64,000 bases of DNA from a virus: positions 11,355-75,354 of the IMG/VR virus record IMGVR_UViG_3300042482_000702. One strand, written 5' to 3'. Within the stretch, counting starts at the first letter, position 1, and each line of letters opens with the position of its first letter. The position numbers and the translations under genes were made by a program. Positions 3,318-55,715 of the stretch are shown piece by piece. A model generated the notes under the pieces. It was not told where the DNA came from. It worked only from the letters and a program-made list of their open reading frames with translations, and did not search any database.

Positions 3318-3356
3318 AAAAACCCTCACTTAACGGTGGGGGTTTCTTTTTTAAAA
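3318..3356. terminator. bidirectional rho-independent terminator
   Basis: AAACCCTCAC-ttaacg-GTGGGGGTTT hairpin flanked by A-run and T-run between convergent genes. Confidence 0.55.
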
Positions 3357-3662
3357 TAAGTTGAGGTGTCTTATTTTTTTATTTGTTATTCTTTCAACAA
3401 TTTCAGTTAATAAAGGTTTTAAACTTTTATAATCAAGACCCAACTGAGTTGTGATATCACTAATGGTTTTAATACTAAAAGCGATATCATCACTTATTTC
3501 ATCATAAATAATAACAATATCACCATTTCTTGACGAAATCCATTGTTCTTCTTCACCATAAGTATCGTTTCGTCTCATTTTAGATACTACTTTTTTCTCT
3601 AAAGGCCCGATAAATTTAACAATAACATCCAATAATCTATTTTCAGTAATCAATACTTTCAT
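3351..3662 (-). CDS. MKxxITEN-leader family protein (103 aa)
   Basis: N-terminus MKVLITENRLLDVIVKFI matches shared leader. Confidence 0.55.
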   Translation of the reverse strand: MKVLITENRLLDVIVKFIGPLEKKVVSKMRRNDTYGEEEQWISSRNGDIVIIYDEISDDIAFSIKTISDITTQLGLDYKSLKPLLTEIVERITNKKIRHLNLF

Positions 3663-3758: not shown

Positions 3759-4151
3759 CTATTCTATTGTTTTAACCGGAACATTAAAGTTATCCCAAAA
3801 CCAATCAATAAATGGTTGTTTCCATCTATCACCAAAAAGACTATTTAATTGGTCTAATTTATCGGAGTCTTCAAATTCTAATATCGGAGATTTATCAATC
3901 ATTTCTTTTAAAAAAACAGGACTTAAAGTTTCAGATTCTTCACTACGCCAATAATCTTCATCATACCATCTAAATAGAGTGTTATCACCATCATCTTCAT
4001 AATCATCTGTATAAAATTCTGTTGCGTAATCAACTTCATTACCCCAATCATCTATACCTGGTGTCCACCCAATATTATTAACATCAAACATACTATTCAG
4101 ATGTTTGATAATTAGTTCGTTAATCTTATTTTCGGTTATTATAATTTTCAT
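3759..4151 (-). CDS. MKIIITENK-family protein (130 aa), conserved WF..F..PVK C-terminus
   Basis: N-term MKIIITENKINELIIKHL; C-term LNSLFGDRWKQPFIDWFWDNFNVPVKTIE shared with paralogs at 23638, 23267, 25069, 15859. Confidence 0.6.
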   Translation of the reverse strand: MKIIITENKINELIIKHLNSMFDVNNIGWTPGIDDWGNEVDYATEFYTDDYEDDGDNTLFRWYDEDYWRSEESETLSPVFLKEMIDKSPILEFEDSDKLDQLNSLFGDRWKQPFIDWFWDNFNVPVKTIE

Positions 4152-4173
4152 CTTTATAAATATGTGTAAATTA

Positions 4174-4198
4174 AAAACCCCCCGAATCCGAGGGGTTT
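4174..4198. terminator. rho-independent terminator hairpin
   Basis: AAACCCCCCG-aatc-CGAGGGGTTT. Confidence 0.45.
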
Positions 4199-5877: not shown

Positions 5878-6126
5878 TCACATAATACCTTCTATAGGTA
5901 AATTATATCTAATTTTAAACCATTCACTAAAAAATTTTTGGAACTCCATTCTATTAATACTAAACATTAATTTACTGTCACGTAAAATACTATCATTATA
6001 AAACACAATTTGTTTTATATCGTGATACCCAAACGAATGACCCTTAAACCAATTAGGTTCATCATTACTTTCAACTAATTCACCTAAGTAATACTTATCA
6101 AAATATGTGAAGATTGATTTTTTCAT
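5878..6126 (-). CDS. hypothetical protein (82 aa)
   Basis: ORF; TATCTTTG element (6131-6138 on minus) 4 nt before ATG, so leaderless. Confidence 0.45.
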   Translation of the reverse strand: MKKSIFTYFDKYYLGELVESNDEPNWFKGHSFGYHDIKQIVFYNDSILRDSKLMFSINRMEFQKFFSEWFKIRYNLPIEGIM

Positions 6127-6180
6127 TTAGCAAAGATAATAAAAAAAACCCAACCTAATTAAAGATTGGGGATTTTTATT

Positions 6181-7290: not shown

Positions 7291-7316
7291 AACCCCACAA
7301 TCAAGTGGGGGTTAAA
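7291..7316 (-). terminator. rho-independent terminator
   Basis: AACCCCAC-aatcaa-GTGGGGGTT. Confidence 0.5.
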
Positions 7317-7595
7317 TTATTCTGAAATATCCTCAATACCGGCTTCAGGAAAATTATCTTGGAGATACCTCAACATTAAATCATTTGAGTTTCCCCCAAA
7401 GAAATCCTCCAACTCATCTTCCATATCATAACTTGCAAATATAAAACTACTTTTATTTTTCCATCCAAAAACATCCCCATGATTTTTCCAATTTCGAAAC
7501 TCCCTATGCTCGGGGACATAAATTAAATTTGTTCGGTGATTAATATATTTAACGAACGCATCATACATTTTACTTTCGGTGATTATTATTTTCAT
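7317..7595 (-). CDS. MKIIITESK-family protein (~93 aa)
   Basis: Leader MKIIITESKMYDAFVKYI (start at internal ATG of track ORF). Confidence 0.55.
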   Translation of the reverse strand: MKIIITESKMYDAFVKYINHRTNLIYVPEHREFRNWKNHGDVFGWKNKSSFIFASYDMEDELEDFFGGNSNDLMLRYLQDNFPEAGIEDISE

Positions 7596-7596
7596 A

Positions 7597-7956
7597 TTAT
7601 TCATTAACAAAGTTATTTATTATATAATCTAACCCAATACCCAAATGTTTAATACCAAGAATGTTTAAAAAATCAGATTCGTCAATTTTACGATTTTGTT
7701 TTTCACTTAAAACTAATACACCATATTCTTTTTGAGGTTGGGCATAATAATTATTACCATTAATATGAAACAAATACATTGACCCATAATTGTTAAGTAA
7801 CCATCTAAACTCTTCTCTACCATCAGAGAACAAGTATTGACCTTTAGGTCCTAATTCAACCCAATTTGTAATCACCTCAATATGGTCGGATAAATTATAT
7901 CCCACCTCCTTGGTAATTAAATCTTTTATTTTATTTTCCGTGATTATAAATTTCAT
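7597..7956 (-). CDS. MKFIITENK-family protein (~119 aa)
   Basis: Leader MKFIITENKIKDLITKEV (start at internal ATG; track ORF extends over upstream gene). Confidence 0.55.
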   Translation of the reverse strand: MKFIITENKIKDLITKEVGYNLSDHIEVITNWVELGPKGQYLFSDGREEFRWLLNNYGSMYLFHINGNNYYAQPQKEYGVLVLSEKQNRKIDESDFLNILGIKHLGIGLDYIINNFVNE

Positions 7957-7969
7957 ATCAATAAATATA

Positions 7970-8212
7970 CTACGATTTAGTTTCCAAACCATATTTCTCG
8001 CAGAACCATTTGTTGAAAAGATAATTATAACTCCCATCACCAAAAAACATATTTAAGTCCCGAATAACAATAGATAACGCACCTGCCCTTTTCAAATATT
8101 TATAATATACACAAACACCATTGACGCAAATTGTATCATCGGTTTCATATATTTCCCTATCACCATAGGTTGATTCCAAATATTTAATAACACACAACTC
8201 CGTCTTGGTCAT
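7970..8212 (-). CDS. hypothetical Cys-containing protein (80 aa)
   Basis: ORF; promoter element TACCTTTG (8222-8229 minus) upstream. Confidence 0.45.
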   Translation of the reverse strand: MTKTELCVIKYLESTYGDREIYETDDTICVNGVCVYYKYLKRAGALSIVIRDLNMFFGDGSYNYLFNKWFCEKYGLETKS

Positions 8213-8239
8213 ATATTTTTTTTACAAAGGTACAACAAT

Positions 8240-8881
8240 TTATTCAAATAAAAAAGGGGGTGGGGGGATTTGGAACCGACCGGAGGGAGTTCGGGTTATC
8301 AAACTATCATACACATTACAAATGTCTTGCTCATTAAGACCCAAGTATTTTTTTGTAATACACGTACTTAAATGACCAAATAATTCCTTCAATAAAATTA
8401 AACTTTCATTTGAATAATTATTCACTTCTAATACCCTTCTACCAAATGTTTTCCTAAAAGTATGTGTTGAAACATTCCCATCTAATTTTATTCTATACTT
8501 TTTTACCAATTCTTTAAGTTTTACATTCACATAAGATTTATCAATTGATTTAGTTCCGTACTTATTTATGAATATAAGTTGATTTAAATTAGTTATGTTG
8601 GATTTTAAAACAATCCTGTCAACAATCTCTTTTAAATCTTTATTTACTTTAACATTTCTTTGTTTTTTTGATTTTACCTCTCTGAATGTAAAAGTTTCAT
8701 TACTTAATAAATCTGAATAAGTAAGTTTTAATAAATCTGAAATCCTTAAACCTGTAAAAACCCCAATTGAAACTAAAAGACAGAATTTATAATGTTCATC
8801 TTTTTCTAATTTTGTAATTAATGATATAAAATCATTCCACTCAAAATATGCTGTAGTTATATTTTGTCCTCTGTTACTCAT
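8240..8881 (-). CDS. tyrosine recombinase / phage integrase family (213 aa, catalytic domain only)
   Basis: GLRISDLLKL (Arg I), HTFRKTFGRRV (HxxR), LLKELFGHLSTCITKKYLGL (His/Tyr) motif order typical of tyrosine recombinases. Confidence 0.7.
   Translation of the reverse strand: MSNRGQNITTAYFEWNDFISLITKLEKDEHYKFCLLVSIGVFTGLRISDLLKLTYSDLLSNETFTFREVKSKKQRNVKVNKDLKEIVDRIVLKSNITNLNQLIFINKYGTKSIDKSYVNVKLKELVKKYRIKLDGNVSTHTFRKTFGRRVLEVNNYSNESLILLKELFGHLSTCITKKYLGLNEQDICNVYDSLITRTPSGRFQIPPPPFLFE
8255..8296. repeat. att-like direct repeat copy A (part 1)
   Basis: Matches copy B with 2 mismatches; encodes integrase C-terminal PPPPFLFE. Confidence 0.6.
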
Positions 8882-8887
8882 AATATG

Positions 8888-9253
8888 TTATTTACTCATG
8901 TCGTATTTGAACTCTATATTGAATTCACATTGTTGTTCACATATCAAGTATCGTTCCACCATATCAACATAGTTTTTTGGGACATCAACGTATGAAAAGT
9001 ATTTTACCTTACACCTTCTATTAAGAATTATTTCATTATATTCATCATCATACTTACTTGGCATACCAACAAATAAATGGTTCATTAATCTTCCTCGAAT
9101 AGATGATACGGATTTCCCAATATACAATATTTCTTTATCCTCACCATATAGAAAATATACCCCTATTCTTTTATTATTAGGTAAATTATTCATACTCACT
9201 TCTAATATACCTGAAAAATTATCTATTGTATATTTTATTTCTTTACCTATCAT
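8888..9253 (-). CDS. GIY-YIG family endonuclease (121 aa)
   Basis: GVYFLYGEDKEILYIGKSVSSIRGRLMNH = GIY-(10)-YIG-...-R...H module. Confidence 0.6.
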   Translation of the reverse strand: MIGKEIKYTIDNFSGILEVSMNNLPNNKRIGVYFLYGEDKEILYIGKSVSSIRGRLMNHLFVGMPSKYDDEYNEIILNRRCKVKYFSYVDVPKNYVDMVERYLICEQQCEFNIEFKYDMSK

Positions 9254-9987
9254 TATTTTTTAATCTTTTCAAATAATAAAGCTTCCTTAACAATATCTTC
9301 ATTACCGGCAATAATTTTTTTAAGAACATCCCAATTATTGACTTTATTACTTGGTTCAACCCAATCCCCATTTTTAATCAACATCTTCTTAACTTTTAAT
9401 ATTGTATTTGTTGATTTATTAGTCACAACATTAATTAATCTACAGGTATACCCGGAATTAAGAAAATGAATAATATCTTCATGTTTTAATAAAAACATTG
9501 ATTCCAATTCTATTGAACCTTTTTTTCTACCAACAATACCACCATTAAGTAATTTATTTTGATATCCTCTTGCTAATCTTTTTTGAAGTTTACCAAGTTC
9601 TCTATTAGCGTATTCAATCTCAGTCATAAAAACAGGAATTGCATTTACATTTAATTTGTTATTAATTATGGTTTCCATTTCAATATCAACACAATATATT
9701 GAGACACCTAATTCATACAGTTCAGAAATTAATTCTTTACAATTGAAAGTATCTCTACTTAATCTTGATAATTCACTAACTACAATTTTATTAACTTTAT
9801 TTTCCCGAACATATTCTAACATAGAATCAAATCCTAAACGAGATTTTTTTAATCCACTATCAATATCTTCAAAATAAGACACAACAGACCATTTCTTTTT
9901 ATTACAAAAATCTAAAACATTAGACCTTTGAGACTTCATTTTTTGTTTGCTTGTAGAAATCCTACAGTAAATTACGACTTTATCCAT
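9253..9987 (-). CDS. serine recombinase (resolvase/invertase family, 244 aa)
   Basis: N-terminal VVIYCRISTSKQK catalytic-serine motif, resolvase core; start/stop overlap with neighbour. Confidence 0.8.
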   Translation of the reverse strand: MDKVVIYCRISTSKQKMKSQRSNVLDFCNKKKWSVVSYFEDIDSGLKKSRLGFDSMLEYVRENKVNKIVVSELSRLSRDTFNCKELISELYELGVSIYCVDIEMETIINNKLNVNAIPVFMTEIEYANRELGKLQKRLARGYQNKLLNGGIVGRKKGSIELESMFLLKHEDIIHFLNSGYTCRLINVVTNKSTNTILKVKKMLIKNGDWVEPSNKVNNWDVLKKIIAGNEDIVKEALLFEKIKK

Positions 9988-11732: not shown

Positions 11733-11771
11733 TAATAAAGATTCCATACATCCAAATTTATTTTCAAAAAA

Positions 11772-11855
11772 AAGGGGGCGGGGGGATTTGGAACCGACCG
11801 GAGGGAGTCCGGGTGGTATGTCATCCCCCAATCCTATCTAAAGAAAATGGGGTTG
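11772..11855. repeat. att-like repeat copy B (part 1 + part 2)
   Basis: Part 1 matches 8255-8296; part 2 (CCCCAATCCTATCTAAAGAAAATGGGG) matches 12300-12328. Confidence 0.6.
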
Positions 11856-15858: not shown

Positions 15859-16212
15859 ATGAAATTTATTATAACAGAGAATAAAAGGAATCAGATTGTC
15901 ACTGATTGGTTGGATAAGAACTATGGTAATTTAAAACCTGAACAACATAAAATTGCTTCAGTTACGTCTTATGTGGATGATAACGGTGATGAGGTATTCT
16001 CATATGATTGGTATGGATTGGTTACCATACATAACTCTGATTTACAAACAATGTTATTTACCGTATTTAATTTGGATAAGGATAGTTTAAATAGTATCTT
16101 TATACCTTGGATGATGGAGAGATATTATATAAAAGTTAATGATGTTCGGTATACCACTTGGCATTGTAATAAGTGTGGTGAATTTCATCCTACTAAATAT
16201 CATATTGATTAA
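15859..16212 (+). CDS. MKFIITENK-family protein (117 aa) with C-terminal CxxC
   Basis: Leader MKFIITENKRNQIVTDWLDK; family C-terminal block LNSIFIPWMMERYYIKV. Confidence 0.55.
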   Translation: MKFIITENKRNQIVTDWLDKNYGNLKPEQHKIASVTSYVDDNGDEVFSYDWYGLVTIHNSDLQTMLFTVFNLDKDSLNSIFIPWMMERYYIKVNDVRYTTWHCNKCGEFHPTKYHID

Positions 16213-16668: not shown

Positions 16669-17232
16669 TTAATAGAATGTTTTTAATTTCATATACGGTT
16701 CCAAATTGTATTTGTCTATAATCTGTTTGAAGATTTGTTGTCTGTGTCTTAAACCTAATGTATTTTTTTGAGTGATAAATCCATAACCAAATCCTGAATC
16801 ACCACTTAATCCCACAACTTTATAATATGGTTGGTCATAAAGTTTTATTGGGTATAATCTTGCTGTGAACTTATACATCATATGGTCTTTGGCTCCGAAT
16901 TTAAAATCCCCCAATTCTTTTTCACCACGATGTTGTAATCGTGTATTATCATTTAGTCCAAGTTTTTCAACCAACGCGTCATGTAGATATAATGACTTTT
17001 TATCTACCGACATATAAGCCAATGGAGTATGAGTATCTTCACTGAACTTCATAATATCACCATCATAAAGAACACTTATTAAATAATCAATCCCACCTAT
17101 TAATTTAGATGTTACGTCTATCCCCAATTTTTTTAACATGGATTTCATAGAATCTTTTTTTGATTCAGATTCTTCGGTTATAAGTCCACCCATCATTTGA
17201 TGTATTCTATTTATATTCTCTTGTAAGTTCAT
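16669..17232 (-). CDS. MNLQENI-RI--MMG leader family protein (187 aa)
   Basis: Leader MNLQENINRIHQMMGGLITEE; homolog of 19151..19618. Confidence 0.55.
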   Translation of the reverse strand: MNLQENINRIHQMMGGLITEESESKKDSMKSMLKKLGIDVTSKLIGGIDYLISVLYDGDIMKFSEDTHTPLAYMSVDKKSLYLHDALVEKLGLNDNTRLQHRGEKELGDFKFGAKDHMMYKFTARLYPIKLYDQPYYKVVGLSGDSGFGYGFITQKNTLGLRHRQQIFKQIIDKYNLEPYMKLKTFY

Positions 17233-17280
17233 AACTATAAATATAAAAAAAAGGGAAAATATTACTTTCCCCTCTTTTAA

Positions 17281-17907
17281 TTATCTTCTTATAAAGAAAT
17301 TATCATCGTCTCTCCTTATCTTCTTCATAAAGGAAAGGTAATCACCTGAATCTCTATATCCTAATGGTAATAATAATGTTGACTTTAATCCTAACTCTTT
17401 TAATCCTAATATCTCATCCACTTGTGCTGGTACAAATCCCTCCATTGGTGTTGAATCTATCCCCTCGAGTGCTGACGCAACCAATGAGAACCCTAACCCT
17501 ATATATGTTTGTTTCTGTGCCCATGTTGTTTTTTGTTCCTCTGACATATTATTGATTGTTCCTATCATCATATTTTTAAAATCATCTAACCCCTCTACAG
17601 GGATGTTTCTTTGTGTTGCCGTATCATTAATATACTTATCCACCGATTCCTCATTTATTGTGTCCCATACAGCAAATACCAATACAGCCGATGAATCCTT
17701 TAATTGTGTCTGTCCGTAGCACGCCGGAACCAATCGTTCTTTTAACTCTTGGTCCTCGATGACAATCACCTGATATGGCGTTAGTCCATATGAACTTGGA
17801 GCCAACTTGGTTACCTGTAATATTTTATCTAATTTGTCTTGAGGGATTTTATCCCCATTCATTTTCTTGGTGGCATATCTCCACTCTAACGATTCTAATA
17901 ATTCCAT
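17281..17907 (-). CDS. NAD(P)H nitroreductase family (NfsB-like, 208 aa)
   Basis: RYATKKM...L.KIL.....APSSYGLTPYQVIVIED.ELKERL matches nitroreductase N-terminal signature; correct length. Confidence 0.75.
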   Translation of the reverse strand: MELLESLEWRYATKKMNGDKIPQDKLDKILQVTKLAPSSYGLTPYQVIVIEDQELKERLVPACYGQTQLKDSSAVLVFAVWDTINEESVDKYINDTATQRNIPVEGLDDFKNMMIGTINNMSEEQKTTWAQKQTYIGLGFSLVASALEGIDSTPMEGFVPAQVDEILGLKELGLKSTLLLPLGYRDSGDYLSFMKKIRRDDDNFFIRR

Positions 17908-17965
17908 AATATATCTTTTTGTTATTAAATATATGATATTCCCCCCGATTAATCAATAGTACGAA
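17900..17965. repeat. ~60-bp conserved 5-prime region, copy 1 (upstream of nitroreductase)
   Basis: CCATAATATATCTTTTTGTTRTWAAATATATGWTATTCCCCCCGATTAATCAATAGTA also at 18812-18880. Confidence 0.5.
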
Positions 17966-17969
17966 TCTA

Positions 17970-18255: not shown

Positions 18256-18819
18256 TTAAAGTCTCACAGGTATCTTATGTTTGGTACCATCAGTCCTTGA
18301 ATATACTGCGTGTTGTGGCGTCATCATCATTTCATTATGTTCATCACCCAACATATTAATATAATCATTACCTTTACCAGGTTTAAGATATGCAATTGTC
18401 ATATGTGGATGATAGTCCGGATAATCACTTGTGAATGGAAATTGTTTTAAATCCTCGTTTGTTTCATTTAAACTATCCCCCATTATATCATACTTTAATA
18501 CATCATATTTCGGGTTGTTGAAACAAGATAGATTATGAGCTTTACAATTTGTGTATGTATATTTGTTTAACACATTAATTATGTCGTCAATACTCACCTC
18601 GTTATCGTGTAATCCGTATAGTAATGTACAATGTGATTCAGGTTCTAAACCAAACCCCTCTTCTTCGGTGTATAAATCATCAGGGTTTATTTTGTTGTGT
18701 AATTCCGCAATAGAATCAGGGTTAAAGTATAACATCGCACAAGAATAAGGATATGTTTGTTTATTCTCATTTATCCCCATCATTGTTTTGATTTTTGTTA
18801 ACTGTTCGTTTAATTCCAT
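18256..18819 (-). CDS. 2H phosphoesterase (LigT / Acb1-like cyclic-nucleotide phosphodiesterase, 187 aa)
   Basis: Two H-x-T-h motifs (ESHCTLLYG and HPHMTIAYL) at the spacing typical of the 2H superfamily; N-terminal MELNEQLTKIKTMMG leader. Confidence 0.65.
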   Translation of the reverse strand: MELNEQLTKIKTMMGINENKQTYPYSCAMLYFNPDSIAELHNKINPDDLYTEEEGFGLEPESHCTLLYGLHDNEVSIDDIINVLNKYTYTNCKAHNLSCFNNPKYDVLKYDIMGDSLNETNEDLKQFPFTSDYPDYHPHMTIAYLKPGKGNDYINMLGDEHNEMMMTPQHAVYSRTDGTKHKIPVRL

Positions 18820-18880
18820 AATATATCTTTTTGTTGTAAAATATATGTTATTCCCCCCGATTAATCAATAGTAAAAATAT
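18812..18880. repeat. ~60-bp conserved 5-prime region, copy 2 (upstream of 2H phosphoesterase)
   Basis: Near-identical to 17900-17965. Confidence 0.5.
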
Positions 18881-19150
18881 AACCATAATCGGTTATAAAT
18901 GTATTCTATAACTTATTATGGCTATAAGGTTCAGGACTTATTTTGTGGGTTTATAAGGGTTGGGACTTATATGTCTTTTACCATATAATTTGGATTATAT
19001 GGTTTTTATCATATATTTTGATAATATGGTGAAATATGATTATCTTTGGTGAATTGTGGTTATATTAATCCTCCGGTGGTGAAATATACTTATTAAAAAG
19101 TAAATCTTTGCCGTTGGTACCACTTATCGGTACTTTGAGCAATAATTTAC

Positions 19151-19618
19151 TTATTTGTAATAGTTTGATGCATCAACCATAAATAGGAAAACATCGTCTA
19201 ATGATTTATCATCCAAATCTGTATACTTCTTATTGTAGGATAATTTATGATATCCACCTTCATACACATCTATGGAGACAGTGTCCGAATAAAAATACTC
19301 AATTTGTTGTGCGGTATCATCATCAGGTGTACCATATGGAACGGCATTTAAACCTAATGTATATATAGAAACTCCGGTTGAATTATTTTCTTTTGATAAA
19401 TCTTGTACCACATCTTTAATAAAACCAATCTTTTGTTCGTTTGTTAAATTAATACTATCACCATACATATTCATAATAGAATCATAACCACCGAAAAGTT
19501 TAATGGTGTAATATAACCCCATCTTATCAATCATTTTGCTTATCTTTGCGGACTTATCATCCTCATTGATAACCCCCATCATTTGGTGGATTCTATGTAT
19601 GTTTTCGTGTAAGTTCAT
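19151..19618 (-). CDS. MNLHENI-RI--MMG leader family protein (155 aa)
   Basis: Leader plus homology to 16669..17232 (KLGI..T.KL.GG.D). Confidence 0.55.
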   Translation of the reverse strand: MNLHENIHRIHQMMGVINEDDKSAKISKMIDKMGLYYTIKLFGGYDSIMNMYGDSINLTNEQKIGFIKDVVQDLSKENNSTGVSIYTLGLNAVPYGTPDDDTAQQIEYFYSDTVSIDVYEGGYHKLSYNKKYTDLDDKSLDDVFLFMVDASNYYK

Positions 19619-19619
19619 A

Positions 19620-20393
19620 TTATTTTTCTTCAGGCAATTTTGTATCCTTTATAAATTTCTTGTGAGAATCCTTATATGATTTTTGTGTCTCATCATTTAC
19701 ATCTTTGGTGTATTGCCAATTCCAATATAAATCATCGTTTGGTTTGAATCCGTAAAACTCATGAACTTCTTTTTGTGTTTCACTAACTACCTCACCATTC
19801 CAATTCTGACCGACACAGATAAATCCTGTCTCAATATCCTCAACAAGATTTGATTCCCCCAATGTTGCATGTCTATTCTCAATCCAAGTCAATCTCTCTA
19901 TTAGATTCTGATAAAACATATTGGTTTGTCCCCACCTTACCGAACTAAAGAATATAATTGCGTCTGACTCAAATAACTCTTTGGATATCTTCCATAGCTC
20001 ATCCTTTGGATTATTTATATTTGCCCAACATCTATGATTACCTGACGGATTTTTTTTCTTATCTTTGAGCATTGCCTTTAATACCCCACAACTATTTCCG
20101 TCTTTTCTTGAAACATTCCCTTCACAAGGAACTATGTTAAGTTCCGGAACATCAATTAGAACTGACTTGTCACCCAACTCATCGTTGAGGTACATCGCAA
20201 TCATTTTGGATTTTGGTATGTCTTGGTTTTTTTCATCCCAATTATATCTATTGGAACAACTTAGTAGTAATACCTTTTTCTTTTTCTTTAGAATGTCCAA
20301 TGTTTTCTTTACTGATTTCCATGCGTCCGATTGAACCATCTCCTCAGCAATCATCATTTCTCTTATTCTAATTATATTTTCCTGTAAGTTCAT
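19620..20393 (-). CDS. flavodoxin-like fold / NADPH-dependent FMN reductase-like protein with Cys cluster (257 aa)
   Basis: KKVLLLSCSNR (GSxR-like) and SDAIIFFSSVRWGQ blocks; CEG..C..C cluster; MNLQENIIRIREMM leader. Confidence 0.45.
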   Translation of the reverse strand: MNLQENIIRIREMMIAEEMVQSDAWKSVKKTLDILKKKKKVLLLSCSNRYNWDEKNQDIPKSKMIAMYLNDELGDKSVLIDVPELNIVPCEGNVSRKDGNSCGVLKAMLKDKKKNPSGNHRCWANINNPKDELWKISKELFESDAIIFFSSVRWGQTNMFYQNLIERLTWIENRHATLGESNLVEDIETGFICVGQNWNGEVVSETQKEVHEFYGFKPNDDLYWNWQYTKDVNDETQKSYKDSHKKFIKDTKLPEEK

Positions 20394-20433
20394 AATAATA
20401 AATATATTGTTTGGTAGAATAGTTTTTATTTCT

Positions 20434-21186: not shown

Positions 21187-21594
21187 ATGAAATATAAATT
21201 CCCTTCGACAAATATAGACGATAATGCTTACTCAACCAAAATAATTCCTTTGATGAAGAAATTCATTAAAAAACATCCGTGGTCCGGAGTAATAGAAGCC
21301 GATAGGTGGTTTAGATATGATTATAAAATTGTTGGTATGACTCTTAATCAAGACTACTTTGAACCAAGATTATTAATCCATATTGAAATTAATAACTTTA
21401 GAACTCATTATCATAATAAATTAGACAACACTCTTGAGTGGAGAAAACATAAATTTCATTTTTGGTCAGCAATAAAAAGAAATGAATATGTTAGAACTTG
21501 GGGTTTGAGGGAAATGTATTTATTCGTTAAATTATTCTCATTCCCTTATCAAATTGGAATTGGAAAAATTAAATTAATAGATGATGAACGATAA
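21187..21594 (+). CDS. hypothetical protein (135 aa)
   Basis: ORF. Confidence 0.45.
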   Translation: MKYKFPSTNIDDNAYSTKIIPLMKKFIKKHPWSGVIEADRWFRYDYKIVGMTLNQDYFEPRLLIHIEINNFRTHYHNKLDNTLEWRKHKFHFWSAIKRNEYVRTWGLREMYLFVKLFSFPYQIGIGKIKLIDDER

Positions 21595-21901
21595 AATGTC
21601 CTCCTTAATCATTAAATACCTAAATCTTACTTATCCTAATAAGCTAACATTTAGTCAATCCAACTATCACAATAAATCAATTGTGTTTAGACACGGTGAT
21701 AATGAAATTGGAATAATGCGGTCGGATATGGATTTTATCAGAATTAATAACCAAACACATAGAGACATATTTATGTGGTTTGGTAATGATTTGGACAGCG
21801 GATTTATTAGTGAATGCGTCATTAAATGGTTATTGATGAAGTACAACTTTAATAATATGAATGAACTACTTATATCGGAATGGTTTGGATTTGACAATTA
21901 A
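21581..21901 (+). CDS. hypothetical protein (106 aa)
   Basis: ORF overlapping previous stop. Confidence 0.4.
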   Translation: MMNDKMSSLIIKYLNLTYPNKLTFSQSNYHNKSIVFRHGDNEIGIMRSDMDFIRINNQTHRDIFMWFGNDLDSGFISECVIKWLLMKYNFNNMNELLISEWFGFDN

Positions 21902-23266: not shown

Positions 23267-23638
23267 TTACCAATTATGTATATCCCCAATACCCATATTC
23301 TCCCAATCTAATGAACCCGGATTTGAAAAATATACCTCATCAGGTTCAATATTCACCCGACTTTTAAACCATTGGGAGATTAATTGGGTTTTCTCATTTT
23401 CATCAAATGAGAAGATATCTAAAATATTCTCAAAACTATTTGTAACATATAAATGGTCTCTCTTTTCAGACCATCTCATAATAATATCACCATCATTGTC
23501 TTTGAACACCACTTGTTGATTACTATATACAGAATCTTTATTTGAATCAAAATCTTCCCGACTTAAATCATTAAAGATATCATCTAATAACTTATACGCT
23601 AAATCTTTTCTTTTATTCTCTGTTATTAATATTTTCAT
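23267..23638 (-). CDS. MKILITENK-family protein (123 aa)
   Basis: Leader + family C-terminus QLISQWFKSRVNIEP. Confidence 0.55.
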   Translation of the reverse strand: MKILITENKRKDLAYKLLDDIFNDLSREDFDSNKDSVYSNQQVVFKDNDGDIIMRWSEKRDHLYVTNSFENILDIFSFDENEKTQLISQWFKSRVNIEPDEVYFSNPGSLDWENMGIGDIHNW

Positions 23639-24033
23639 TATATTTTTAAATAATCGTCCGTTATTTGTTTAACCTCTAATCCCGTATTTTCTTCAAACCA
23701 CTGTTTAAATATTGGTTTCCATAAATTTCCAAATAAAGAAGTTAGTTTTCTACCAACTATAGGATATATGTGTAATAAAGGACAGTCATAGTCATGTAAA
23801 GGGCCATAACCCGCAAAATATTCATCTTCCGGGCCAGCATTTGCATTACAACCATAATAAATGTAAGAATCAACATCATTTATAAAAAAAACAAGGTCTC
23901 CCCACTTATCAACATCATCTTGGTAAGTACCTGAGCGGTTATTTTCATGCCACCCATAATCCGGAGTATATTCCCTATCCAAATACTTACGGACAACACC
24001 CTCAATCTTATTTTCCGTTATTACTATTTTCAT
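23638..24033 (-). CDS. MKIVITENK-family protein (131 aa)
   Basis: Leader + C-terminus LTSLFGNLWKPIFKQWFEENTGLEVKQI, clear paralog of 3759..4151. Confidence 0.6.
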   Translation of the reverse strand: MKIVITENKIEGVVRKYLDREYTPDYGWHENNRSGTYQDDVDKWGDLVFFINDVDSYIYYGCNANAGPEDEYFAGYGPLHDYDCPLLHIYPIVGRKLTSLFGNLWKPIFKQWFEENTGLEVKQITDDYLKI

Positions 24034-24055
24034 ATAAATAAATATCCCATAAAAT

Positions 24056-24082
24056 AAAAACCCCCATTAATCTTGGGGGTTA
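24056..24082 (-). terminator. rho-independent terminator
   Basis: AAAACCCCCA-ttaatct-TGGGGGTT. Confidence 0.45.
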
Positions 24083-24280
24083 TCTTTTTCTTTATTACGC
24101 ACTACATAAAAATTATGTCCAAAGTAAGGTAAATCAATATTATCACCAAACCCTAACGACTCAACCATATTTTCAAGGTCTCTATTGGACATCTTATTTA
24201 GGACATCCACCCCAACCTTTAATAGTATCAATTCTATAACCTCATCTCTACTAATTTCTACTGTTGATTTCCATCCCATA

Positions 24281-24481
24281 TTACTTTCTAGCTTTACCAA
24301 CAAATTCTATCAATTCATTCGCCAATCGTATCGCCTCATCATAGGACATATACAATCTTGTATCAATACTCATATCTTGTCTTTCTACCACTCGTAGTAC
24401 AATTGAACTTTGTGTTTCACTTTCTTGGATAACCACTTCTTGATATCCACCATCCATTATTATTTTTGTTTCTACCCACAT
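24281..24481 (-). CDS. hypothetical protein (66 aa)
   Basis: ORF. Confidence 0.3.
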   Translation of the reverse strand: MWVETKIIMDGGYQEVVIQESETQSSIVLRVVERQDMSIDTRLYMSYDEAIRLANELIEFVGKARK

Positions 24482-24507
24482 ATTACTTAATTGAATTAGT
24501 TAATTTT

Positions 24508-25014
24508 TCACTCATAATCATCAAAATATTTATTCATCGGTATTGGTTTTTCATAACCTCCGATTTTTTTTAATCCCTTTTTCATTTCCGATATATCATC
24601 TTTAGTGTAATGTGGTGGAAAAGTTGGTTTCATCCCATATGGCATGTTATGTCTCTCTTCCCAAATTTTCAACCTGTGTTCCGCAGTTGATATTTCGTTA
24701 GCAAATTCCGTCCCTAATAACCATTTATCATACTCATCTTTAGATTTAATAAGCATTATATCACCACCATAATTGGTGATTTTAGCATCCGGATTGGTTG
24801 TATAAACATTTACAATCCCATCTTGACCATTGTATTCCTCACATAAATCATTCACCGCAAGTTCATTGGTTAATGTGTTTTTCCATTTACTACCATATGA
24901 CCTAACCTCACAGATATATATAAACCCATCTTCACGAGTTTGTAAATAATTACCTATCTTGTTTTGAAGCTCTCTTAATTCTTCTACCGAGTATTTAATA
25001 AAATCTATTTCCAT
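24508..25014 (-). CDS. hypothetical protein (168 aa)
   Basis: ORF bounded by terminator at 25036-25062. Confidence 0.5.
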   Translation of the reverse strand: MEIDFIKYSVEELRELQNKIGNYLQTREDGFIYICEVRSYGSKWKNTLTNELAVNDLCEEYNGQDGIVNVYTTNPDAKITNYGGDIMLIKSKDEYDKWLLGTEFANEISTAEHRLKIWEERHNMPYGMKPTFPPHYTKDDISEMKKGLKKIGGYEKPIPMNKYFDDYE

Positions 25015-25035
25015 AAGGCAAATATAGGCATAAAA

Positions 25036-25062
25036 AAAGGAACCACCAAATAGTTCCCTTAT
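25036..25062 (-). terminator. rho-independent terminator
   Basis: AAGGAAC-caccaaata-GTTCCCTT + T9. Confidence 0.5.
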
Positions 25063-25068
25063 TTTTTT

Positions 25069-25404
25069 TTAACTTAAATCTTCTTTATCTTCCATATAAT
25101 GAACAATTTTAACCGGTAATTTAAATTTATCTTCAAACCAATGTTTTACTAACAATTTACTTTCATCCATTGAATAACTGAACCAAACTATAGGTGCGAG
25201 AATATCATCACAAATTGATAAAGTATTTAAATTTGGATTGTACACCATTATAATACCATCACCATTTATATAATTAACCAGAAAAACCTCCTTCCCTTGA
25301 CCATTTCTAATCTGTTTAGTTTTATTATACATTTTAGAAAATGTTTTATTCAAGTTTTTTATAGCTAATTCGTCTCTACGACTTTCCTTTATTAATAATT
25401 TCAT
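25069..25404 (-). CDS. MKLLIKESRRDE-family protein (111 aa)
   Basis: Tandem paralog of next gene (CDDILAPIV.FSY...K.LVK.WFEDKF.LPVKI). Confidence 0.55.
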   Translation of the reverse strand: MKLLIKESRRDELAIKNLNKTFSKMYNKTKQIRNGQGKEVFLVNYINGDGIIMVYNPNLNTLSICDDILAPIVWFSYSMDESKLLVKHWFEDKFKLPVKIVHYMEDKEDLS

Positions 25405-25419
25405 ATGTTATTTTATTTT

Positions 25420-25749
25420 TTAATTTAAAACACCTTTTTGTGTGTGATGAATAATTTTAACAGGTAATTCAAACTTATCTTCAAACCAATTTTTTACTAA
25501 CATTTTACTTTCATGTGGTGTATAACTGAAATAAACTATGGGAGCAAGAATATCATCACAAATGTATAAAGTACTCGCCCTTTCACCATAAATCATTATA
25601 ACACCATCACCATTTCTATAATCAATTCTCCTATGTTCTCCTGTTGAATCTGTAATATAATCAACATCAATATACATATTGGAAAATGCTTTATCCAACT
25701 CTTTTTTTGCCAATTCGTCTCTACGACTTTCTTTTATCACTATTCTCAT
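25420..25749 (-). CDS. MRIVIKESRRDE-family protein (109 aa)
   Basis: Paralog of 25069..25404. Confidence 0.55.
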   Translation of the reverse strand: MRIVIKESRRDELAKKELDKAFSNMYIDVDYITDSTGEHRRIDYRNGDGVIMIYGERASTLYICDDILAPIVYFSYTPHESKMLVKNWFEDKFELPVKIIHHTQKGVLN

Positions 25750-26361: not shown

Positions 26362-26976
26362 TTATTTAATAATTCTGAACCTTAATAATGGTTTACCATT
26401 TATTGTTATATCACCTTTTTCATTCTTATCTATTGTCTTAACAACAACCTTTTTGTTTTTGAATTTTCCACCCATTATGGTATCACCGACTTTAATATCT
26501 AACTTAATCATTTCACTTAATGTTAATTCTCTCTCATCATCTTGAGTGTTCCAAATATCTTGCCCTGTTCCTTTATATATTAATCTGATTGCATCAACCG
26601 GAATGTCTTCAAAGGTAACAATATGATGTTTATAATCACCACCATCAAAATGAGCGTCTTTATACCATTGTACACCGGCTCTTTCTGTATCAATCGCCCA
26701 TATGTCATCATCATAAGTCGAATCGAACATATCTTTTTTCTTTAAACTATCTGTCGCAAATACCGCAGGGACACACTCATCATCTTCATCATAATTACTA
26801 TCAGCATAAATCATATAACATTCCCCCAAGACCGCTCTGATTCCGTATTCAGAAATACTATCTCGATTTTCTCTACTCGAAGCATGAACAACATATTTTC
26901 CGGGAGTAATCTCATCTCCCTTAACCCTTTGTTCTTGCAACAATTTATATTGTAATTCTGTTATAATTATTTTCAT
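26362..26976 (-). CDS. hypothetical protein with MKIIITE leader (204 aa)
   Basis: Leader MKIIITELQYKLL. Confidence 0.5.
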   Translation of the reverse strand: MKIIITELQYKLLQEQRVKGDEITPGKYVVHASSRENRDSISEYGIRAVLGECYMIYADSNYDEDDECVPAVFATDSLKKKDMFDSTYDDDIWAIDTERAGVQWYKDAHFDGGDYKHHIVTFEDIPVDAIRLIYKGTGQDIWNTQDDERELTLSEMIKLDIKVGDTIMGGKFKNKKVVVKTIDKNEKGDITINGKPLLRFRIIK

Positions 26977-32422: not shown

Positions 32423-32459
32423 TTTTCTTTTTTTTTAAATTAATTTTTAAATTGGGTAC

Positions 32460-32467
32460 AAAGATAC
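32460..32467 (-). promoter_or_regulatory. TATCTTTG -7 element for SPFH gene
   Basis: Exact motif ~38 nt upstream of ATG. Confidence 0.35.
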
Positions 32468-32496
32468 CACATTTTTTTTAATACACAACTTTTTTT

Positions 32497-32724
32497 TTAT
32501 TTTTTTTCTTTATCAAAGAAAACACCTTTCATATTCTTCAGGAACATTACAATATTATCTAAATAATAAATTATAGGACCAGCAGTAATTAACGCTAATA
32601 CTAATACTCCCCAAAAAAAGTAAAAGGTACTAGGTTGTGTCATCAGATAAAATGATAGATTAATTAATTCTATCCACAAGAAGATTCCAATTAGAACCCC
32701 CATAAATTTTAATACATTTTTCAT
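32497..32724 (-). CDS. small two-TM membrane protein (75 aa)
   Basis: Paralog of 32750..32998. Confidence 0.45.
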   Translation of the reverse strand: MKNVLKFMGVLIGIFLWIELINLSFYLMTQPSTFYFFWGVLVLALITAGPIIYYLDNIVMFLKNMKGVFFDKEKK

Positions 32725-33276: not shown

Positions 33277-33900
33277 TTACCCAATTTTAGGTGGTAGTGG
33301 CGGGTCTAACAAAAACTTATCATTAACCCAATGTCTTAATTCATTCTCAACAAAATATTCAGGGACTTCTTCGTCTTCTGATTTTTCTGAAGCCAATTCA
33401 CTAATATGTTTAGCAAATTTAATTTTATATTTATCATTTAACATAGTCATTAATCCGTCAGATATGAAAAATATTTTAGAAAATGGGTCGTCTAAATGTA
33501 TTTCACCTTCGGCAACTTGAAAAGCTTTTAATATTAATTTACCCCAAAAAGTTTTATAACTTTCTGTTTCAGTTAAACTTGGTCGTAAAAGTTTATTAAC
33601 CGCTCTCATTGTACTGGCAATAATGCCCGGAATCATAAGTTGGGGTAAGAACCACGGTAATAATCTAATAGTTGTTTTTACACCACCTTCACCAACATGT
33701 CTAAACACTCTTCGTTTGGTTGCACTATCAACAATAGCCTTTAATTGCCCAAAAGTTATCTTACCTTGACTACTACAAAATCTCTCACTATCACAAATAT
33801 TTTTAATAGTTGTTTTTGACGGATGTACCTCTACGTTTTCAAATAATTTAATATATTGGGTTTCATTTACTATAATTCTCATATTTATAAATACATTCAT
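33277..33900 (-). CDS. hypothetical protein (207 aa)
   Basis: ORF. Confidence 0.5.
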   Translation of the reverse strand: MNVFINMRIIVNETQYIKLFENVEVHPSKTTIKNICDSERFCSSQGKITFGQLKAIVDSATKRRVFRHVGEGGVKTTIRLLPWFLPQLMIPGIIASTMRAVNKLLRPSLTETESYKTFWGKLILKAFQVAEGEIHLDDPFSKIFFISDGLMTMLNDKYKIKFAKHISELASEKSEDEEVPEYFVENELRHWVNDKFLLDPPLPPKIG

Positions 33901-33913
33901 ACTTTAAAATAAC

Positions 33914-34741
33914 ATGGAAAAAAATAAATTATTAAAACTTGTTAGTAGAAGCTCTAAATCATTTAAAGAGTTAACTCCAACCCAAATTTATAATAAAATA
34001 CAATCAGACTCAATGTTTGAACCTTTGTTGTCTATATTACAACCTAACGATATTGTATTATATTGTTTTTTAGTTAATCAAAACCAATTAAAAAAAGATA
34101 TTGATGAGATGTATGACCGAATAATTAGTGGTCTATACGCTGTTCAAATTGCTGAAATAGACGAACAAAACCCTGAAGTGGATTGTTCATATTGTGATGC
34201 AGGTCTTACTAATTGTAGTAATTGTGATTCAGCTGGAACTATTTCTTGTGACCAATGCTCTGAAACCGGTGAAGTTGATTGTCATTATTGTGAAGGTAGT
34301 GGTTACGAAGATGATGATACCGAATGTGAATATTGTGATGGTAGTGGCAATGAAACTTGCGATAAGTGTAATGGAGATGGTGAGGTTGATTGTCATTGGT
34401 GTGATGATGGTTATAATCTTTGCGATGAATGTGGTGGAAGTGGAGAAATACCCGATTATGATTTAACATCTGTTGTCTTTTCAGAGTTTGTATCTTGGAG
34501 TGAAGGTTGGAGAAATAATTTTGACACTTATGTTTCAGATGAAATCATTGATGACGATGATTACCACAATTTTATTGAGAATAATCAAACTTTATTACTT
34601 AACTATATCACATTAAAAAGTGAACATTATAAAGATTTTGAAGTTGGTGAATTAGTTTTTGATGGATTAATATTTCAACCGACAATCAGTCGAGCAGGAA
34701 CAATAGGAAATAAATTAGTAGTTAAAAACTTTAGACATTAA
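33914..34741 (+). CDS. Cys-rich protein with 8 DnaJ-type CxxCxGxG zinc-finger repeats (275 aa)
   Basis: CSYCDAG, CSNCDSAG, CDQCSETG, CHYCEGSG, CEYCDGSG, CDKCNGDG, CHWCDDG, CDECGGSG. Confidence 0.55.
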   Translation: MEKNKLLKLVSRSSKSFKELTPTQIYNKIQSDSMFEPLLSILQPNDIVLYCFLVNQNQLKKDIDEMYDRIISGLYAVQIAEIDEQNPEVDCSYCDAGLTNCSNCDSAGTISCDQCSETGEVDCHYCEGSGYEDDDTECEYCDGSGNETCDKCNGDGEVDCHWCDDGYNLCDECGGSGEIPDYDLTSVVFSEFVSWSEGWRNNFDTYVSDEIIDDDDYHNFIENNQTLLLNYITLKSEHYKDFEVGELVFDGLIFQPTISRAGTIGNKLVVKNFRH

Positions 34742-35399: not shown

Positions 35400-36434
35400 C
35401 TATATGTTGTCAGGAAATATTTCATTTATGTCTTTAATAATACGACGATAATCCGCATAATCGGGGATTCTAAAATCAAGACGAGGTTCTTCACCATCAT
35501 CCATTAGTTCATTCATCATAGTTAACCAAGACCCTATATAATCAATATTGTACTGATAACTTCCCCACAAATTTCTATCCCCAACATATTTTTTAATTGA
35601 GTTCTTAACTTCATTGGGATTAAATTTGATATAATAATATTCTATAAGTTGGTCAGGATAATTTCTTTTAGGCTCTGATATCCATTGTGTTGATTTAGTA
35701 TCAAAAAAAGTCTCTAACTCATTCATGACCATATCGTAAATTTCAGATTCTAAAGCGCTATTATAAGCATTGTTATGAATGTTATATAATTCACTTTCTA
35801 AATCTTCTAAATAACCTTCATTCATCAAATAGTTCATTGATTCCTCATCACCTATAACATCACCAACATTATCTGATTCTAAATAAAAAACACCCTCATC
35901 ATCCACATAATTTTGAAATAAATCAGGACTATCATCATCAACCTCAACCTTCCAATTGGTTAATCTATCTAAAATATATGTTTTTAATAAGTTAACATTA
36001 CTAGGGTTTAACTCACTAATAACATCACGATAAACATCATCTGTTGTATTATCATATGGATGCCAACTATCTTCTCCCAATACCGATGTCGCTATCTGAG
36101 ATGCGGTCACATCTCTACCTCTATCATCAAATAAAATTGATAAATCTTCTCGGTCACCCATTTTTAAATAATAACCATCTTCTTTTTGAACAATATTTGA
36201 CAATTGTTTTATACATTTTTGAAGAACCTCTTCACTACCTAATGTGTTAATCATATAGTCAAGTAATTCTAACTGCTCATCCTCTAATTCACCAATAAAT
36301 GGGTCAATTAAATGAATTAAGTTTTTAGTTTTGAAGAATCTTAATACACTATTAATATCACCAAATATATCAACAAGATTATTAATTTCACCTCTATTAA
36401 ATTCCTCAACATATTTTAATAATTTATCTGCCAT
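35400..36434 (-). CDS. acidic hypothetical protein (344 aa)
   Basis: Long ORF. Confidence 0.55.
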   Translation of the reverse strand: MADKLLKYVEEFNRGEINNLVDIFGDINSVLRFFKTKNLIHLIDPFIGELEDEQLELLDYMINTLGSEEVLQKCIKQLSNIVQKEDGYYLKMGDREDLSILFDDRGRDVTASQIATSVLGEDSWHPYDNTTDDVYRDVISELNPSNVNLLKTYILDRLTNWKVEVDDDSPDLFQNYVDDEGVFYLESDNVGDVIGDEESMNYLMNEGYLEDLESELYNIHNNAYNSALESEIYDMVMNELETFFDTKSTQWISEPKRNYPDQLIEYYYIKFNPNEVKNSIKKYVGDRNLWGSYQYNIDYIGSWLTMMNELMDDGEEPRLDFRIPDYADYRRIIKDINEIFPDNI

Positions 36435-36963
36435 AATATCTTTTCCTTTTACTCGTATATTCCGGTGTTCCGTAGATAACTTTTATTCCAGTATTTGTTG
36501 TTATGTTATCTTTAAAATAATCATTTACACCCCAATCTACCTCATCTTTTATTTCCCACCCAAAAATATCATCACTTAATGCGTCTTCTAATGTCCTGTG
36601 TTCATTACCTAAATCAACACTACCCGCCATATCATCTACCTTTATTCTAACAACGACAAATGGTTCATCATCGTCTAAATCCCAATTATCAATATCCACA
36701 ACCTCAAAAAAGAAATCATAATTACCATAATCATCTACATGATGGGGATTTTGAAGTAATAAAGATTTTGCTAACTCTTTTGATTGGTCATTACCTCTAA
36801 ACTCAACTAAATATTTATATGCTTGGTCATAAGTCACCATTGGATTACCACTATCCAACCCGAATAAACTAATAAAAGTTTTATCTACCTTCCATTTTCC
36901 GGTCTTATCCCAATATTTGAAAAAGATGTTCTTTAATTTGGATTCTGTCAGTATAAATTTCAT
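36424..36963 (-). CDS. MKFILTESK-leader protein (179 aa)
   Basis: Leader MKFILTESKLKNIFFKYWDK. Confidence 0.55.
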   Translation of the reverse strand: MKFILTESKLKNIFFKYWDKTGKWKVDKTFISLFGLDSGNPMVTYDQAYKYLVEFRGNDQSKELAKSLLLQNPHHVDDYGNYDFFFEVVDIDNWDLDDDEPFVVVRIKVDDMAGSVDLGNEHRTLEDALSDDIFGWEIKDEVDWGVNDYFKDNITTNTGIKVIYGTPEYTSKRKRYYGR

Positions 36964-38879: not shown

Positions 38880-38977
38880 AGGATGTTTGTTTTTAGTTTT
38901 GTGAGTACAAAGATAAGCCTTTATTTCATATAACCAAACTTTTTATAAAAAAAAAAGGAACAAAATGTTCCTTTAAT

Positions 38978-42581: not shown

Positions 42582-42638
42582 ATGTTTTAGTTTCTATGGT
42601 ACAAAGATAATTCTTTTTTTGATAATACCAAACTTTTT

Positions 42639-42893
42639 TTAATATTTTTCAATATTATATGAACCACAGATTCTGTGCTCTCTATTATACTCATCTTTGA
42701 ATGTAATACATCCGTTTTTCTCCACATATGTATTAGTGAAAAAATTTGTGTTTTGAGTTCTATTACCCGAAATGGTAATTTCATAATAATGTCCATTTAT
42801 TGAGACACGACTTACCATATACATTCTGTGTCCAATAATAACAAAAACAAATAAAAAAATAACACCCACCAAAGTCAATAACTTACTTACCAT
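42639..42893 (-). CDS. membrane-anchored hypothetical protein (84 aa)
   Basis: N-terminal TM; extended promoter ATCAAAAATAGTATTATCTTTG at 42917-42945. Confidence 0.4.
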   Translation of the reverse strand: MVSKLLTLVGVIFLFVFVIIGHRMYMVSRVSINGHYYEITISGNRTQNTNFFTNTYVEKNGCITFKDEYNREHRICGSYNIEKY

Positions 42894-42964
42894 ATTAATT
42901 TAATTTAAATTCCCGACAAAGATAATACTATTTTTGATAATACCAAGCATTTTTTTTAATTATT

Positions 42965-53000: not shown

Positions 53001-53089
53001 AATAATAAATATGTAAAATTAAAAAAAAATCTTTACATATTACCATTATAACAGATATTTATTGATATAAACATTTAAAAAAATATATC

Positions 53090-55687: not shown

Positions 55688-55715
55688 AATTATAAATATT
55701 TGTTATTTGTATAAA

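Follow-up and report, generated by a model that had tools for sequence, protein, structure and literature searches.

A small-protein family with a portable N-terminal tag in an uncultured phage and its relatives

The stretch of phage DNA analysed here, called the window throughout, comprises 64,000 nucleotides (positions 11,355 to 75,354 of the IMG/VR virus record IMGVR_UViG_3300042482_000702) and encodes multiple copies of a small-protein family that is previously undescribed and has no detectable fold relative. We give a probability of about one half to the reading that this is an old, expanded family of non-enzymatic alpha/beta binding modules of ~80-180 aa, equipped with a portable tag and located in the accessory regions of freshwater jumbo phages. 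In the predicted fold, the constant frame consists of an N-terminal helix, one or more C-terminal helices with a conserved Phe and Trp, and the last beta-strand; the centre is a beta-meander with loops that differs by subfamily but, within the orthologs of any one paralog, shows strong conservation. Each central surface may bind its own fixed partner, from the host or the phage, and the common tag may link all tagged proteins to one shared process, possibly as a docking or oligomerisation peptide for another hub. The gene arrays gain and lose whole genes by recombination between short repeats, among them the DNA that encodes the tag. Related loci on other contigs are labelled L001, L003, L004, L005, L008, L011 and L015.

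Family members, distribution and predicted fold

Family membership was assessed by iterative hidden Markov model (HMM) searches over the 267 open reading frames (ORFs) of at least 40 aa in the window and with a second profile built from 145 diverse homologs, using E<=1e-3 as the significance cut-off. Twelve ORFs match the profile, and a thirteenth, at 36424-36963, is borderline. The first-pass annotation had reported at least ten paralogs. All ten positions proved to be family ORFs, including the borderline 36424, and most of them have E-values of 1e-15 to 1e-35; they span 92-179 aa and lie on the minus strand, with the exception of 15859. Three additional members, at 5878, 7970 and 21581, had been overlooked because they lack the MKIIITE start, and a pattern search for an MKIIITENK-type start retrieved six window ORFs. 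The likeness among members is not due to chance: nearly all homologs match end to end.

The copies are partly in tandem, as had been claimed. On the minus strand, the 131-aa protein encoded at 23638..24033 (E=1.6e-32) belongs to the 3759/23638 subfamily, is the first gene behind a hairpin and ATATTTAT cassette and has more than 100 orthologs at 60-94% identity. Its stop is overlapped by the start of the 123-aa gene at 23267..23638 (E=2.3e-22), whose L004 ortholog is 95% identical. The same strand carries a compact 109-aa form at 25420..25749 (E=8e-22) and its 111-aa tandem duplicate at 25069..25404, also recovered by HMM and 59% identical to it in amino acids. Elsewhere on that strand are 3759..4151 (130 aa, net charge -20, pI 4.06, E=2.4e-35), likewise positioned behind a hairpin and ATATTTAT cassette; 3351..3662 (103 aa, divergent C-terminus, E=6.6e-11); 5878..6126 (82 aa, untagged, E=1.7e-6), which was recovered only once the 145-homolog profile was used and has TATCTTTG, a Bacteroidetes-type -7 box, upstream; 7317..7595 (92 aa, E=3.9e-16) and 7597..7956 (119 aa, E=1.2e-9), whose true starts are the ATGs at 7595 and 7956, respectively; and 7970..8212 (80 aa, untagged, TACCTTTG upstream, E=8e-8). 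The plus strand holds 15859..16212 (117 aa, E=1.9e-26), of the subfamily with a CxxC...H...H tail, and 21581..21901 (106 aa, untagged, E=8e-7), whose orthologs in L003 and L004 are 77-79% identical. The probable member at 36424..36963 (minus strand, 179 aa) has the tag, a C-terminal block and a long insert; it scored E=6e-4 to 7e-3 before joining the profile, misses the cut-off against the 145-sequence profile and is not significant against the A2/A3 profiles.

Among 1.84 billion proteins, the family profile retrieved 451 cluster representatives (50% identity, E<=1e-3), nearly all of 90-145 aa and matching end to end; a 5.8-billion-protein collection yielded 303 proteins. Contigs carrying the family reach 226 kb and 318 kb, and 150 members were counted in ~1.06 Mb of DNA from related phages. 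The first-pass annotation had proposed such a metagenome search and a look at copy-number variation; related loci hold 1-11 copies per 20 kb. BLAST clustering separated singletons and three main subfamilies: 86 representatives are of the 3759/23638 type, 30 of the 15859 type, which has a C-terminal CxxC...H...H tail, and 12 of the 25069/25420/23267 type.

The statement that the family fits no described domain stands. Scans of the members against Pfam and PHROGs gave a best E-value of only 0.009, a profile search of PDB sequences a best value of 0.49, and a BFVD structure search matched only uncharacterised relatives from uncultured phages. Cultured phages contain no DNA or protein match, and a tblastn search of 50,697 phage records found none. 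Relatives were not found in 185,579 GTDB species genomes, and GTDB therefore gives no prophage or host clue. A text search of the literature for 'MKIIITE' found no mention.

Two members were modelled with AlphaFold2 using the 145-sequence family alignment. The model of the 23638 protein (predicted local distance difference test, pLDDT, 85; predicted template modelling score, pTM, 0.81) has elements H7-21, H36-44, E46-51 and E54-60, a low-confidence loop at 61-80, and E86-89, H91-117 and E123-125. That of the 25420 protein (pLDDT 93, pTM 0.84) has H9-21, four strands within 26-63, H65-74, H78-93 and E99-102. Both follow the same order, with a helix at the N-terminus, an antiparallel meander in the centre and, towards the C-terminus, one or two helices and a last strand; the size differences between them are confined to the centre. 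The constant scaffold with a differing middle that had been proposed is thus recognisable as a constant structural frame with a subfamily-specific centre. The C-terminal block L..LFG..WK.PF..WF...F..PVK.I, which had been attributed to the family as a whole, is complete in the 3759/23638 subfamily, but elsewhere only a weaker F/L...W(F/M)...(Y/F).L.V is found. The tag aside, this is a sizeable, confidently modelled family (451 clusters at 50% identity) without a solved structural relative.

Beyond one Phe and one Trp, the only near-invariant columns of the family alignment are M1, K2, I5 and E7. Neither a catalytic constellation nor any polar residue outside the tag is conserved, and this speaks against an enzymatic role. 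Most members are acidic: the median pI is 4.7, and 113 of 145 have a pI below 5.5. Net charges range from +2 to -20, and this range, together with the lack of a fold match, does not fit DNA mimics of the Ocr/ArdA type.

The N-terminal tag, its coding DNA and the turnover of the arrays

The most conserved element of the family is the tag MK-I-I-I-T-E-[SN]-[KQ], of 7-9 residues, with I-T-E at residues 5-7 and variants of the form M-K-phi-phi-I-T-E-[SN]-[KRQ], always at Met1. The first-pass annotation took it for the conserved start of the family and missed it as a separate element. The models and sequence comparisons show it to be a separable, portable element lying outside the predicted fold. 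In the models, residues 1-3 have a pLDDT below 50 and no strand is assigned; averaged over blocks of ten residues, the values are 65 and 78 at the start of the two models and 97 in the next block. The tag is absent or degenerate in the internal domains of the fusions P0205, P0169, P0248 and P0228. It is present on 52 non-family ORFs in 18 clusters across the DNA of the clade, LRR and DUF5872 proteins among them, and with residues 1-12 masked, no similarity was detected between these clusters. Tagged ORFs amount to ~8% of clade ORFs. In the window, tagged non-family proteins are encoded on the minus strand at 26362..26976 (204 aa, MKIIITE tag, found by motif search) and 33277..33882 (201 aa counted from MRIIVNET; tag and cassette repeat D10, described below, found by motif and repeat searches).

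Residues 149-204 of the 26362-26976 protein form a KOW-like C-terminal module, KVGDT.MGGKFKNKKVVVKTI.KN.KGDITINGKPLLRF, which shares 68-75% identity with proteins from Pelagibacter phage HTVC008M and from huge phages of 630-640 kb and recurs as a stand-alone tagged 64-aa ORF in L001 and L008. Other leaders are also shared in the window. A second one, MNLQENIxRIxxMMG..I[TN]E, begins the otherwise unrelated proteins of 16669-17232, 19151-19618 and 19620-20393, with a variant on the Acb1 homolog at 18256-18819 (-), and its DNA together with the upstream ATATTTAT box constitutes the DNA repeat D17. Further types are ..KILREE (25746, 16306) and KLTESE (4202, 51642).

The codons indicate that the tag is conserved as a peptide. 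Their variation falls mostly in third positions (E7 is GAA or GAG, and T6 uses all four codons), with I/V/L/F swaps at positions 3-4. Tag Ile codons are preferentially A-ending (ATA 67% vs 33%, p=3e-20), but this bias extends genome-wide to codons 2-9 of untagged genes (ATA 50% vs 32%) and is therefore not tag-specific.

Six genes have the ATATTTAT box 4 nt before their ATG (4156-4163, 17237-17244, 20398-20405, 24038-24045, 53005-53012 and 55692-55699), and the window contains 37 occurrences against 22.7+-4.3 expected. The position hints at leaderless mRNAs or at a ribosome-binding element of a non-Shine-Dalgarno kind; a Shine-Dalgarno core was found in only 4 of 101 genes. A box ending 2-9 nt before the ATG is present in 36 of 105 tagged and 69 of 727 other genes (p=3e-10), compared with 1 of 105 and 32 of 727 for TAnnTTTG at the same distance, a difference that is not significant (p=0.11). 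As a plain pattern, TAnnTTTG is not enriched in the window (113 found, 104 expected), and neither are sigma-70 promoters. The Bacteroidetes promoter consensus, TTTG-N19-TAnnTTTG, is carried by the repeat families D12 and D18. Cassettes of this -33/-7 type, TTTG-N19-TA(T/n)CTTTG, precede small genes at 32458-32506, 38907-38955, 42601-42649 and 42916-42964, several of which look membrane-associated.

Box and tag codons are joined in the DNA repeat D10, which runs from a hairpin tail through the ATATTTAT box and 4 nt to the ATG and tag codons. Repeat searches located four copies in total, at 24004..24065 on the minus strand, 4122-4183, 7927-7988 and 33853-33914, one of them before a non-family gene; the cassette is conserved in L003 and L004. 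Upstream of the 23638 cassette, a hairpin scan detected a terminator-like hairpin at 24059..24081 (minus strand), with similar ones at 4175-4198, 6149-6170, 7293-7310, 25036-25060 and 3320-3345; the first 20 kb of the window have 26 such hairpins against 9.6+-3.6 expected.

Gene content differs between the window and the related loci. The 25069 gene is absent from L004 through a clean whole-gene indel between TTTAA(A/G)TTAAAAAA repeats, with microhomology at the junction; 23267 is absent from the close relative L003, and L011 is arranged differently again. In L004, an additional paralog, which belongs to another subfamily and has a copy of ATGAAAATAGTAATAACAGAAA on either side, stands between the promoter cassette and the ortholog of 23638. 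The L004 sequence follows that of the window over the hairpin, the ATATTTAT box and ~22 initial bases of coding sequence, ATGAAAATAGTAATAAC(A/G)GAAA, beyond which the identity is lost; the next gene in L004 begins with the identical 22 bases. The tag-coding DNA is thus a recombination junction, and the arrays change through gain and loss of whole genes, not through continuous hypermutation.

The tag and its sibling leaders, as MK(I/Y/F)IITE[SN][KQ] and the like on ~8% of clade genes, might be address labels routing at least 19 unrelated families to one machine, whether a protease, a capsid-loading route followed by injection, or some other hub. We regard this as unlikely, but its consequences would be considerable: the tagged effector repertoire would exceed the T4 internal proteins by an order of magnitude, with the small-protein family as its largest component and one with a new fold. 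An addressing signal would also allow the effectors of a large uncultured phage clade to be recognised by a sequence rule, flag many candidate anti-defence or takeover proteins, and offer a handle for loading foreign proteins, as with the T4 capsid-targeting sequence.

It is similarly doubtful that the proteins are cargo of the T4 internal-protein kind, in which case the tag would act as a capsid-targeting sequence that directs them into the prohead, a prohead protease would remove it by a cut after Glu7 (I-T-E|), and the mature proteins would be injected against host defences. The T4 capsid-targeting sequence is MKTYQEFIAE, to which the tag has no sequence similarity, and no homology to the bodies of T4 internal proteins was detected by tblastn against the 50,697 phage records or in PHROGs. 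Still, IPI, IPII and IPIII of T4 are the closest analogy, and membership of this class is no firmer than candidate status. They too combine a short conserved N-terminal peptide on diverse small proteins with variable loci, an (I/L)-x-E ending and conserved 5' coding DNA, which in the present family stands at indel junctions. That the tag is strictly N-terminal, stands on unrelated proteins (the family and the 18 clusters), ends in I-x-E and favours the ATATTTAT box would all fit, as would the enrichment of phi-phi-x-E-[ESNDL] in the first 22 residues (15/101 vs 10/704 internal windows, p=1e-8, a value inflated by paralogy). T4 propeptides have 10-20 residues (PMC5694885), and T4 IPI* has a documented anti-defence role (PMC3012670).

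Several observations speak against such cargo. A match to [IL]-x-E occurs by chance in 22% of internal windows, and ~8% of ORFs is far above any known capsid-cargo set. Unlike the T4 proteins, the family has homologous, acidic bodies and dozens of tagged genes per genome. The genes behind the ATATTTAT box are a mixed set that points to no one timing class and includes a glycosyltransferase, so the box does not mark virion genes. No gp21-type protease was seen. The only protease is a ClpP-like 'head maturation protease' at 1171-1905 (+; phrog_94, E=5.5e-31), which lies behind a TAnnTTTG box, a host-type promoter, among small ORFs and with no portal or capsid gene near it in the window. Related loci in IMG/VR number 45, on contigs of up to 435 kb; the loci inspected around the protease have more small ORFs, not capsid genes, and the copy in the IMG/VR contig L015 is 100% identical to it as a protein.

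Ejection or inner-body paralogs of phiKZ-like phages, such as gp53 and gp54 of SPN3US, offer another comparison. These strongly diverged jumbo-phage paralogs have the same N-terminal residues; such identical N-termini are retained among diverged giant-phage ejection proteins and are thought to serve prohead targeting and processing (PMC5694885). They differ in being much larger, proven virion components with propeptides of more than 100 residues, and PHROGs and BFVD searches detected no homology.

The peptide could, finally, be functionless, the coding part of a mobile expression cassette made of box, ATG and 7-9 A-rich first codons that spreads by recombination; the A-rich codons would help translation to start where no Shine-Dalgarno sequence is present, possibly on mRNAs that lack a leader. 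We consider this rather improbable. Box, ATG and tag do form a repeated DNA unit (D10, and D17 for the second leader), with the ATATTTAT box ending 4-5 nt before the ATG; Shine-Dalgarno cores are scarce, recombination junctions fall within tag DNA, its codons tend to end in A, and each of the tag residues K, I, T, E and N is encoded by A-rich codons. Yet that codon bias is genome-wide, replacements at the peptide level are conservative amid mostly third-position variation, and C17 and G19 are conserved though neither is A or U. The PeSL promoter/stem-loop mobile cassettes that Arbiol et al. 2010 reportedly described in T4-type hyperplastic regions resemble this arrangement, with a stem-loop and promoter-like box repeated before small accessory ORFs and modular shuffling of genes; in the present case, by contrast, the repeat enters the ORF and encodes its first ~9 residues, and the box is only 4-5 nt from the ATG. 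If the tag were an expression cassette only, it would still show gene shuffling at conserved 5' coding ends in non-Shine-Dalgarno phages.

Selection on the central region

The window is syntenic with L003 and L004, where family orthologs are 77-97% identical. The family had been called hypervariable, with diversifying selection on its core, and an analysis of dN/dS had been recommended. Ortholog pairs between the window and L001, L003, L004 or L005 gave dN/dS values of 0.20-0.49 (Nei-Gojobori), compared with 0.03-0.71 for neighbouring genes. Among 114 orthologs of the 23638 copy (at least 55% identity), the centre is the most conserved part: mean column entropy is 0.57 bits across residues 26-90, compared with 0.88 bits N-terminally and 0.83 bits C-terminally. 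In the ortholog comparisons of this copy, pN/pS of the centre is never above that of the termini. For 25420 orthologs, centre and termini gave mixed pN/pS values (0.42 vs 0.20 and 0.44 vs 0.58); none of the contrasts reaches significance. Purifying selection thus acts on orthologs, and the claim of hypervariability is not supported.

A raised centre was seen only in the young tandem pair 25420/25069. Its dS is even, at ~0.47. In the centre (residues 23-60), dN/dS reaches 1.27, against 0.35 and 0.29 in residues 1-22 and 61-103, respectively; the corresponding pN/pS contrast, 1.18 in the centre vs 0.44 in the pooled termini, is not significant (Fisher p=0.13). These values suggest relaxed or positive selection on this centre after duplication. 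Between 25069-25404 and L003 7594-7929, six changes were counted, 6 nonsynonymous and 0 synonymous, all at residues ~50-75, which are too few to test.

It is very improbable that the family is continuously hypervariable through ongoing diversifying selection or targeted mutagenesis of its core. The centres of different paralogs are almost unalignable, and both the young pair and the 25069 comparison with L003 point in that direction, but the ortholog values, the conserved centre of 23638 and the insignificance of the paralog contrast argue against it, and the repeat search found no template/variable repeat pair of the diversity-generating retroelement type involving family genes. Since orthologs are constrained and such repeats were not found, the divergent cores are best seen as old, separately constrained specialisations.

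Some points weigh against reading the family as binding modules with variable, partner-specific centres. The two models were built largely on the same family alignment and their agreement is not fully independent; fold searches with them returned no relative, leaving no function to borrow; and neither the fusion partners nor the large tagged proteins yielded an informative domain when scanned against Pfam and PHROGs. The conserved frame itself could also be the functional surface and the centre mere filler, against which stands the conservation of the centre among orthologs. With binding modules as the preferred reading, their size, charge, context and array dynamics would fit an accessory role in host interaction, takeover or anti-defence, and the genomic context makes such a role plausible. 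Small anti-defence binders (Ocr/ArdA, Acr, Acb2, Tad) are likewise small, acidic and non-enzymatic, and the family shares with them an accessory region near Acb1.

Genomic setting of the family genes

The window has ~30% G+C and densely packed small ORFs, mostly on the minus strand. Its genes include a DNA methylase, a CCA-adding enzyme and DHH, Band-7, GH12, Fib_succ_major and DUF5122 beta-propeller proteins. We infer that it is an accessory region of a lytic freshwater jumbo phage, the host of which is probably a member of the Bacteroidota. An Acb1 anti-CBASS homolog is encoded at 18256-18819 (-; PF23474, 30.5 bits against a threshold of 27), 5 kb from family genes, with a ~20-aa N-terminal add-on, MELNEQLTKIKTMMG. 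An 83-nt repeat, 87% identical between 17887-17969 and 18799-18881, covers the upstream region and first codons of the nitroreductase (17281-17907) and Acb1 genes.

That the family members are virion structural or decoration proteins has very little probability: some of them have the same ATATTTAT box as the beta-propeller gene 54257-55687, which adjoins fibre-like genes, but family genes lie in small-ORF accessory regions, show no PHROG structural or viral-structure match beyond their own relatives, and differ in copy content between near-identical genomes.

Beside the family cluster at 7317-8212, 60-nt direct repeats (8237-8296 and 11755-11814, 90% identical) bracket a 3.5-kb segment. The segment, probably an inserted mobile element, codes for a tyrosine integrase at 8240-8881, a serine invertase at 9253-9987 and a GIY-YIG protein of 568 aa that has internal repeats of ~150 nt. 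ARAGORN predicted a tRNA-Leu(TAA) at 54644-54732 (-), which lies within the beta-propeller ORF 54257-55687 and is probably a false positive. Towards the end of the window, 55815-58712 combines 12-nt repeats with a Fib_succ_major domain, and the 1261-aa ORF at 58723-62508 contains 45-nt periodic repeats. It adjoins a 27-nt (9-nt based) tandem repeat of ~53 copies at 62591-63948, which reads as collagen-like Gly-X-Y on the minus strand in another frame and accounts for a jump in G+C to 47%.

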